Below, in pieces: positions 30,779 to 31,087 of a stretch of 47,886 bases of DNA. Source of the DNA: a virus (lineage: Duplodnaviria > Heunggongvirae > Uroviricota > Caudoviricetes); the IMG/VR virus record IMGVR_UViG_2563366951_000006; one strand, written 5' to 3'. Under the pieces are notes generated by a model, which was not told the origin of the DNA, did no database searches, and worked only from the letters and a program-made list of their open reading frames with translations. A program made the position numbers and the translations under genes. The first letter of the stretch is position 1, and every line of letters begins with the position of its first letter.

Positions 30779-30853
30779 TGGAGCGGGCAGCGGGAATCGA
30801 ACCCGCATCATCAGCTTGGAAGGCTGAGGTAATAGCCATTATACGATGCCCGC
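30779..30853 (-). tRNA. tRNA-Gly (anticodon TCC)
   Basis: Manual fold: acceptor GCGGGCA/TGCCCGC, anticodon loop CTTCCAA, T-loop TTCGATT, CCA encoded. Confidence 0.8.
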
Positions 30854-30856
30854 ATA

Positions 30857-30932
30857 TGGTGCCGACTACCGGAATCGAACTGGTGACCTACTGATTACAA
30901 GTCAGTTGCTCTACCTACTGAGCTAAGTCGGC
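30857..30932 (-). tRNA. tRNA-Thr (anticodon TGT)
   Basis: Manual fold: acceptor GCCGACT/AGTCGGC, anticodon loop CTTGTAA, CCA encoded. Confidence 0.8.
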
Positions 30933-30934
30933 AG

Positions 30935-31008
30935 TGGTCCGCCACCGGAGCCTCGAACCCCGTACCACAACACCTGGGTTGCCGCTCTTCCCGATGAGCT
31001 AGTGGCGG
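30935..31008 (-). tRNA. tRNA-like gene with non-canonical anticodon arm (anticodon unassigned)
   Basis: Perfect acceptor (CCGCCAC/GTGGCGG), D and T arms; best anticodon-arm fold is GCAAC/GTTGT around a 6-nt loop CCAGGT. Confidence 0.5.
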
Positions 31009-31010
31009 TC

Positions 31011-31087
31011 TGGTGGCCCTTGCTGGACTTGAACCAGCGACCGGGCGATTATGAGTCGCACGCTCTAACCAACTGAGCTAAAGGGCC
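31011..31087 (-). tRNA. tRNA with CAT anticodon, Ile2-like (lysidine) or Met
   Basis: Manual fold: anticodon loop CTCATAA; resembles enterobacterial ileX as I recall it. Confidence 0.75.

Follow-up and report, generated by a model that had tools for sequence, protein, structure and literature searches.

The window analysed here is a 47,886-nucleotide (nt) stretch of DNA from a virus of the Caudoviricetes (IMG/VR virus record IMGVR_UViG_2563366951_000006). Our subject is a 74-nt gene on its minus strand, at 31008..30935, which lies second in a cluster of four tRNA-type genes and folds as a complete tRNA except that a 6-nt loop occupies the anticodon position. This gene, referred to below as the odd gene, is not a canonical decoding tRNA. 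Comparison with its relatives showed that selection maintains the whole tRNA body while leaving the loop largely free, and that the loop in its sub-family (sub-family A) has neither the length nor the constancy needed to specify a codon. Our preferred reading, to which we give a probability of roughly 0.55, is that the odd gene is an allele of a selectively maintained family of non-decoding, tRNA-shaped RNAs from lambdoid-type Enterobacterales prophages, which would act as tRNA mimics. We found no description of this family in the published literature on phage tRNAs, tRNA-like RNAs, decoys or doublet decoding.

A tRNA-shaped gene without a readable anticodon

ARAGORN placed four tRNA-type genes on the minus strand within 30779..31087, separated by spacers of 2, 2 and 3 nt. 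This agrees with the initial annotation, made from the letters alone, in the number, order and tight packing of the genes. The CAU gene that opens the cluster (31011..31087) is a tRNA-Ile in the annotation that the Prokaryotic Genome Annotation Pipeline (PGAP) gives to an identical locus, i.e. it is read there as lysidine-modified Ile2. The genes and the parts of the odd gene are as follows.

31087..31011, minus: tRNA-Met(cat), first gene of the cluster (ARAGORN; Rfam 69.2 bits)
31008..30935, minus: odd gene, 74 nt, ARAGORN tRNA-??? ('anticodon ag')
30932..30857, minus: tRNA-Thr(tgt/UGU) (ARAGORN; Rfam 73.8 bits)
30853..30779, minus: tRNA-Gly(tcc/UCC) (ARAGORN; Rfam 64.9 bits)
31008-31002 / 30945-30939, minus: odd gene, acceptor stem, 7 bp, beginning with C1:G72
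30999-30984, minus: odd gene, D arm, normal, with G18 G19
30982-30978 / 30971-30967, minus: odd gene, anticodon stem, 5 bp
30977-30972, minus: odd gene, 6-nt loop CCAGGU at the anticodon position
30966-30963, minus: odd gene, variable region, 4 nt
30962-30946, minus: odd gene, T arm, followed by the encoded ACCA at 30938-30935

The 5' part of the odd gene reads CCGCCAC UA GCUC AUCGGGAA GAGC G GCAAC CCAGGU GUUGU and continues as GGUA CGGGG UUCGAGG CUCCG GUGGCGG ACCA. All four stems are paired throughout, with one G.U pair each in the anticodon stem and the T stem, and the cloverleaf is complete down to the nucleotides expected of a tRNA (U8, A14, G18 G19, U54 U55 C56 and A58). What is missing is an anticodon loop of 7 nt in which U33 is present and position 37 is a purine: no nucleotide of CCAGGU can be assigned as a U33 preceding a 3-nt anticodon. 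ARAGORN confirmed the 74-nt length and the loop described in the initial annotation, and RNAfold likewise returned a 5-bp anticodon stem closed by a 6-nt loop. A fold program returning a canonical 7-nt loop had been named there as a refutation, and ARAGORN gave none.

Scoring against covariance models set the odd gene apart from its neighbours in the same way. Whereas the neighbours scored 65–74 bits against the Rfam tRNA model RF00005 (gathering threshold, 29 bits), the odd gene was not matched even at E<=10, either in a 501-nt or in an 83-nt search; a relative with a 7-nt loop scored 44.4 bits. The best scores against Rfam families of non-decoding tRNA-like RNAs were 10.4 bits for mascRNA and 15.9 bits for YrlA, far below threshold. 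The 501-nt region is present as an exact copy in five complete E. coli genomes, in all of which PGAP leaves the odd gene unannotated. Since identical copies of the 74-nt gene are found in these five complete genomes and at 19 loci in the retrieved sequence set, which consists chiefly of IMG/VR contigs at these loci, the gene is not a sequencing error, which settles the doubt about a resequencing correction. Its loop, its model score and the lack of a conserved anticodon among its relatives, described next, are the reasons why we do not regard it as a canonical tRNA.

One body, many loops

The odd gene belongs to a family of more than 200 loci and 98 distinct sequences in Enterobacterales prophages; these 98 sequences are the set used for covariance-model alignment. 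A search pattern that fixed no more than 14 nt at the 5' end plus 8 nt of the acceptor strand on the 3' side matched at least 120 IMG/VR contigs and 52 species genomes. Genera with family members include Escherichia, Shigella, Salmonella, Citrobacter, Enterobacter, Buttiauxella and Scandinavium, as well as Dryocola, Edwardsiella, Hafnia, Cedecea, Pluralibacter and Yokenella. The conserved body comprises the acceptor stem CCGCCAC/GUGGCGG, a D arm with G18 G19 A20, the 5-bp anticodon stem, the T arm and the encoded CCA. A, U and G all occur as the discriminator base. Some copies are solitary, with no neighbouring tRNA. When the 74-nt gene was compared by blastn with deposited phage genomes (E <= 0.001), just 18 relatives came up, none of them with a short loop.

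Across the family the loop varies in both sequence and length: 86 unique sequences whose structure could be parsed carry 56 distinct loops of 5, 6, 7, 8 or 10 nt, to which ARAGORN assigns the labels Lys, Phe, Leu, Ser, Pro, Tyr, Ile, Gln, Arg, Val, Thr, 'Stop' and '???'. A few members have canonical loops, CUUCUAA (Arg-UCU) and CUCCUAA (Arg-CCU). The slot of the odd gene in related E. coli prophages holds the loop CCUUUAA, annotated 'tRNA-Lys' yet with C33, and in Yersinia phage YeP1 it holds CAUUGCC, annotated 'tRNA-OTHER/Pseudo-TTG'. Sub-family A, to which the window's copy belongs, carries 29 different loops of 5–6 nt on 28 near-identical bodies (ARAGORN labels Phe, Leu, Ser, Pro, Tyr, Stop or ???) and therefore has no conserved anticodon. 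Its loops follow the consensus C-N-N-R-R-U, which CCAGGU fits: positions 2 and 3 can be any of the four bases, and positions 4 and 5 are purines in 39 of 40.

Two unusual arrangements were seen among the IMG/VR contigs. Contig L089 has two sub-family A copies about 1 kb apart, at 11346-11419 and 12420-12493 (with the different loops CUCGAU and CACGGU), both of which adjoin a partly decayed Met-type tRNA. Fifteen contigs represented by L007 (L007:2778-2843) carry a 66-nt 'Lys-like' derivative that has lost the whole anticodon arm and adjoins a separate, canonical tRNA-Arg(UCU) gene whose body is different.

Pairing is preserved in all four stems

To describe the family we derived a covariance model, R1, from the cloverleaf structure and 18 sequences of the sub-family. 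Against R1 the window's gene reaches 101.8 bits. The lower limit for family members is ~44 bits and the upper limit for ordinary tRNAs ~48 bits, the best of the latter being tRNA-Arg(UCU) genes. Because of these scores, and because the Arg-UCU and Arg-CCU members share the family's body, the sequences point to descent from a phage gene of the tRNA-Arg(UCU/CCU) type.

In the 98 sequences, 97.8 % of stem cells are in standard pairs, compared with 31–49 % when the partners are slid by 1–3 columns, and compensatory double changes occur in 8 of the 21 pairs, distributed over all four helices; none of 500 shuffles matched the observed values, all of which come from an alignment fitted to R1 and thus favouring pairing. 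The covariance-model alignment was used here because in a MAFFT alignment of the mixed sub-families the anticodon arm was misaligned and absent from the RNAalifold fold. Individual double changes can be read directly from the raw sequences: C7:G66 is replaced by U7:A66 (in E. coli K-12 and in L246 and L277), C4:G69 by U4:A69 (L275), and G10:C25 by A10:U25 (L217 and L275). Pair 27:43 occurs as A-U, G.U, U-A and G-C, and pair 30:40 as A-U and G-C.

Strong constraint on the body, little on the loop

Three samples were drawn with anchors placed outside all or most of the odd gene. The first used only the flanking Met and Thr genes as anchors and gave 45 loci with 20 distinct slot sequences; the body was intact in every slot, with 14 different loops. 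Over 33 unique regions, per-site diversity was 0.4–0.6 in the loop, ~0.6 in the spacers between tRNAs and 0.5–0.7 in the flanks, compared with ~0 in the acceptor stem, D arm, anticodon stem and T loop, which matches the values for the Ile2 and Thr genes. The second sample (67 loci) had as its only anchors the anticodon stem and the D stem's 3' side. The loop was 5 or 6 nt long at all 67 loci and 7 nt at none, and at least 25 changes fell in the 6 loop sites versus at least 20 in the 46 unanchored sites of the body, a roughly tenfold difference per site within sub-family A (binomial p ~1e-12).

The third sample, anchored only on the downstream Thr gene, was a census of 143 loci. A family member lies upstream of Thr at 101 of them; 95 of these copies (94 %) are tRNA-shaped and 6 are decayed, while the Ile2 neighbour was callable at 93 of the same 101 loci. 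The 95 intact copies comprise 46 with a C33 'Lys' loop, 44 with a short loop and 5 with a canonical Arg-UCU loop. At 41 of the 143 loci the slot before Thr lacks a tRNA-like gene. In its place, many of these loci have a hairpin-like element of ~60 nt, GGUUCYGAGGG...CCCYGARGAACCA, with a TATNAT box in front of it and ACCA at its end (for example in the IMG/VR loci L234, L238, L249 and L258, within the 60–90 nt directly upstream of Thr). It may be the remnant of a collapsed tRNA or a leader hairpin.

The fate of the neighbouring Met slot gives a further comparison. Where that slot has decayed to 69–87 % identity (e.g. L161, L167, L130 and L091), and likewise where it is gone (Buttiauxella, Dryocola and Pluralibacter), the body of the odd gene is still 88–100 % identical to the window's copy. 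Only at 3–10 % flank divergence do the loops reach ~0.5–0.6 differences per site, and there the bodies differ at ~0.03. Shuffling of alleles among mosaic phages probably contributes to this loop divergence. Drift and diversifying selection on the loop are not separable in these data, since neutral sites are saturated and the phages are mosaic.

A relative at the yahM locus

With the 74-nt gene as query, blastn found a full-length relative of ~81.5 % identity in 5,191 of 5,426 complete E. coli genomes (96 %). In K-12 MG1655 it is an 81-nt element (L291:2501-2581) between yahL and yahM that overlaps the annotated start of yahM. It reads CCGCCAUUAGCUCAUCAGGAAGAGC AGACG ACAAC CAGGAUU GUUGU AUGGUA CGGGG UUCGAGG CCUCG AUGGCGG UCCA, with U7:A66 in the acceptor stem and the loop CAGGAUU. 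ARAGORN calls it tRNA-Ser(gga); it is missing both from the Rfam tRNA calls at E<=1 and from the PGAP annotation. The K-12 and phage loci have a module of ~85 nt in common and nothing more, and the yahM open reading frame (ORF) is not found at the phage loci.

A strong promoter-like element, TTGACA-17-CATAAT, precedes the K-12 relative by ~90 nt. Experimental support for the promoter yahMp, downstream of which the relative lies, comes from a massively parallel reporter study that confirmed a yahM transcription start and repression by IHF; the preprint is silent on a tRNA-like element at this site (bioRxiv 10.1101/2025.05.13.653802). In the published literature that mentions yahM we found no description of a tRNA-shaped element. 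An unannotated element of this shape thus appears in the leader of an uncharacterised K-12 gene, where it is directly testable in the best-studied bacterium.

How a tRNA without an anticodon might act

We propose that the RNA would be transcribed together with the cluster from the cluster's own promoter, within the leader between Q and the lysis genes, and excised by RNase P and 3' trimming as a tRNA would be. The excised RNA would fold into an L shape and read no codon. Being unable to read one, it would therefore act through its body, as a tRNA mimic that occupies or titrates a tRNA-binding protein: a tRNA-targeting immune nuclease or toxin, or arginyl-tRNA synthetase (ArgRS). The general part of this proposal agrees with what we found, a fold under selection combined with a dispensable anticodon function, as expected of a non-decoding tRNA-like RNA. 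Its particulars are less secure. Decoy or titration of a tRNA-binding protein is the likeliest role that the sequences suggest, and we put it forward tentatively. More speculative still is the full proposition that an anticodon-less, L-shaped tRNA mimic, carried by Enterobacterales temperate phages and by E. coli at yahM, binds a tRNA-recognising protein, with a non-cleavable decoy or inhibitor of an immune nuclease or toxin and an ArgRS titrator as candidate roles.

Among the possible explanations we infer the order mimic or decoy, RNase P processing module, pseudogene, unusual decoder. The mimic comes first because the acceptor stem is invariant, A20 is retained, the anticodon stem is conserved and solitary copies exist; A20 is presumably a determinant for ArgRS. 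Phage tRNAs counter the tRNA-cleaving defences PARIS AriB, P2-OLD and HepS: AriB targets tRNA-Lys(UUU), Thr(UGU) and Asn(GUU), P2-OLD mainly cleaves ThrU, in the anticodon stem, HepS cleaves Thr, Ile and Ser tRNAs, and viral tRNAs have been suggested to inhibit AriB competitively (PMC12409363, PMC12445682, PMC13043305).

Several points weigh against the mimic. The function of the family is deduced from conservation alone. The commonest 7-nt loops, CCUUUAA and CAUAUAA, each occur on several bodies and could still decode, so the family as a whole is not necessarily non-decoding. In the T stem, an A.C mismatch at 51:63 occurs in 35 of the 98 sequences. Most sequences came from patterns that demand parts of the body, the samples with less bias are smaller and were drawn from related phages, and mosaic recombination can shuffle alleles and so inflate loop divergence relative to the flanks. 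The decoy role in particular has to contend with the fact that known anticodon nucleases read a loop or stem motif, and nothing ties the odd RNA to any such nuclease. The host's thrU and glyT match the cluster's Thr(UGU) and Gly(UCC) genes, respectively, at 100 % identity, and the cluster is therefore unlike a nuclease-resistant set. Finally, the near-fixed copy in K-12 is a poor fit to an anti-defence role.

Of the alternatives, a cis-acting processing module fares best, and we regard it as possible though rather unlikely. Here cleavage by RNase P at the odd unit would free the neighbouring tRNAs and the downstream leader, and the product itself would be functionless. Such a role would suit the tight cluster with its 2–3 nt spacers and the constant position of the gene, which is always just 3' of a promoter-like element and 5' of other RNAs or genes, in the phages as well as at yahM. 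The elements used by RNase P (acceptor stem, T arm and CCA) vary least, the loop does not matter to this enzyme, and RNase P alone separates such E. coli tRNA operons. However, RNase P recognition needs neither the D arm nor the anticodon stem nor a particular acceptor sequence, all of which are conserved, the acceptor in sequence and not just in pairing. Moreover, intact first or solitary copies exist without a dependent neighbour, and precise loss of the unit would be equally tolerable.

The second alternative, which the initial annotation had raised as a degenerate pseudo-tRNA, is that a phage tRNA-Arg was inactivated by a 1-nt deletion in its loop and is now drifting without function. Its conserved body would then reflect recent ancestry, hitch-hiking between conserved tRNAs or phage recombination. 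In keeping with this, the gene is tRNA-derived and has a non-canonical loop, the tRNA models and PGAP reject it, loop diversity resembles that of spacer DNA, the A.C mismatch in the T stem is frequent, and there are a few clearly decayed copies as well as the 66-nt deletion derivative; in the abundant 'Lys-like' allele, substitution densities of loop and body are indistinguishable. What we did not find is neutral decay blind to structure, and for this reason the odd gene is not a simple pseudogene. The proportion of tRNA-shaped copies in the census (94 %) equals that of the functional Ile2 neighbour, changes are about tenfold denser in the loop than in the body, and all four stems show compensatory double changes. 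Defunct Met slots, by comparison, are decayed or lost at loci where the odd body persists. The occurrence of 5–6 nt loops in many genera also implies an old state. With the body conserved across genera, its stems kept by compensatory changes and truly decayed copies looking different, we consider a plain pseudogene improbable.

An unusual decoder, the other suggestion of the initial annotation, is poorer still and in our view very unlikely. It would be a charged tRNA whose short loop mediates doublet decoding or -1 frameshifting, or one of a proline type. Body, tertiary nucleotides and CCA are as good as in real tRNAs, loop positions 4 and 5 are limited to purines, and several loops (CCAGGU, CACGGU, CAUGGU, CUUGGU and CAGGU) present NGG beside a C1:G72/A73 acceptor end. 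The combination of C1:G72, A73 and a loop GG matches what we take to be the identity elements of E. coli prolyl-tRNA synthetase. One study has visualised a normal tRNA decoding a doublet (PMC12202706), which counts in favour; against it, a review describes non-standard anticodon loop sizes as very rare and not known to mediate frameshifting (PMC5009743). No loop is conserved for a specific codon or shift site: the same body carries 29 different 5–6 nt loops without a conserved anticodon, and these include stop-type and many sense-type triplets. In addition, U33 is missing and the discriminator varies among A, U and G.

A short hypervariable loop on a constant scaffold could also suggest a specificity RNA acting through a kissing loop, or a target of directed mutation by a diversity-generating retroelement, yet complements of the loop at each locus plus its closing pair are no more frequent within +-3 kb than in controls (12 vs 12.8), no template copy of the gene lies nearby, and loop differences number 0 in 41 locus pairs with <1 % abutting-flank divergence (a stricter two-flank version of this test had 15 pairs only), which leaves both ideas highly improbable. 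A relic of an att site was rejected as well, the gene being full length and the window containing no second copy of its 3' half at <=3 mismatches.

Comparison with known tRNAs and tRNA-like RNAs

In genomic position the cluster is equivalent to those of lambdoid and Stx phages, which lie between Q and the lysis or stx genes; we assume that the ileZ-argN-argO type of cluster (933W) is its counterpart. The T4 tRNA set includes Ile-CAU, Arg-UCU, Thr-UGU and Gly-UCC, and the repertoire logic of the lambdoid/Stx and T4 sets, i.e. tRNAs for A-ending codons, is shared by the window. The difference lies in the Arg slot: canonical family members hold Arg-UCU or Arg-CCU there, whereas the window has a 6-nt loop and no conserved anticodon.

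Rescue tRNAs, such as the T5 tRNA-Lys/Thr/Asn active against PARIS AriB and a phage tRNA-Thr active against P2-OLD, resemble the odd gene in being phage-encoded and having altered anticodon arms, and the nucleases concerned target isoacceptors that are present here, Thr(UGU) in the cluster and 'Lys(UUU)' among the relatives. However, rescue tRNAs retain an anticodon and decode, and the odd gene has no definable anticodon: it does not combine the anticodon of a targeted host tRNA with substitutions at the recognition site, as rescue tRNAs do (PMC12409363, PMC12445682). The tRNA-like domain of transfer-messenger RNA (tmRNA), plant-virus tRNA-like structures, mascRNA and YrlA share with the odd gene a tRNA-like fold that presumably engages tRNA-processing or tRNA-binding factors without reading codons; the odd gene differs from them in its full four-arm cloverleaf and its recent derivation from a real tRNA gene. 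The frameshift suppressors sufA, sufB and sufJ likewise carry a loop of other than 7 nt on an otherwise normal tRNA; they have one extra base (8-nt loops) and a defined target codon, whereas the short loops of the odd gene's family are 1–2 bases shorter than normal and have no conserved triplet. K-12 also contains tRNA pseudogenes or att-site fragments (pawZ, ptwF and pauD). Like the odd gene, these are prophage-associated, tRNA-derived and skipped by annotation; unlike it, they are partial and derived from integration, while the odd gene is full length, far from the integrase and conserved in structure.

Phage tRNAs are now being reinterpreted as weapons against tRNA-cleaving bacterial immunity, and to our knowledge the established cases are all working decoders. 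A widespread, conserved tRNA without an anticodon would imply a second use of the scaffold that is independent of decoding, be it mimicry, titration or RNA processing, and a mimic of the kind proposed here would, if real, represent a new class of phage counter-defence or regulatory RNA on a tRNA scaffold. There is also a practical consequence: since annotation pipelines either skip such genes (PGAP) or give them spurious identities (ARAGORN), surveys of phage tRNAs and codon usage are distorted.

Genomic setting of the cluster

The remaining features of the region are listed from the upstream end of the late-region leader, followed by the tmRNA gene.

33108..32272, minus: Q antiterminator (Pfam PF03589, E=6e-54), upstream limit of the late-region leader
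32183..32166, minus: terminator-like hairpin just after Q (terminator scan)
31213..32163, plus: 316-aa ORF between Q and the tRNA cluster, phrog_7003 (function unknown)
31097..31125, minus: promoter-like TTGCAA-17 nt-TATCTT, found by eye, ending 10 nt before the first tRNA
30368..30560, minus: STnc100-like RNA (Rfam RF02076, 71.7 bits), between the tRNAs and the holin gene
29970..28741, minus: lysis cassette downstream of the cluster (Pfam PF05106, PF00959, PF03245)
29970..29638, minus: holin
29726..29205, minus: lysozyme
29208..28741, minus: Rz
698..1060, plus: tmRNA gene ssrA (tag peptide ANDENYALAA; 295.8 bits)

The Pfam matches place the cluster between a Q gene and a lysis cassette, as the initial annotation had stated without mentioning the ORF of 316 amino acids on the opposite strand. 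This ORF gave no match in Pfam, PADLOC or NCBIfam. It was tried as a candidate partner of the odd gene, and only 13 of the 89 loci of sub-family A have it; comparison of the family loci gave no consistent protein partner. The hairpin at 32183..32166 could serve as terminator for Q and this ORF alike.

The promoter scanner made no call at the element at 31097..31125, which is below its threshold; at the position matching the window's TATCTT, relatives have TATTAT, TATCAT or TATGAT. The only strong intrinsic terminator that the terminator scan found in the region before the holin gene (30398..30372) closes the STnc100-like RNA, and the two together look like the terminated late-promoter leader of a prophage, in a t_R'-type arrangement. 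The host counterparts of the prophage's Thr and Gly genes belong to the thrU-tyrU-glyT operon (5,421 genomes), from which they may have been captured; alternatively, gene conversion may hold them identical.

The presence of ssrA in the window indicates that the DNA is an E. coli-type chromosome with a lambdoid prophage, and the position of the prophage downstream of this gene suggests an ssrA-adjacent prophage. Upstream of Q, at 33418-35289 on the minus strand, lies a gene for a 623-aa primase-helicase of the Toprim plus DnaB/AAA_25 type, which shows weak PADLOC similarity (E=2e-9) to DnaG-like proteins associated with defence-associated reverse transcriptases (DRT).

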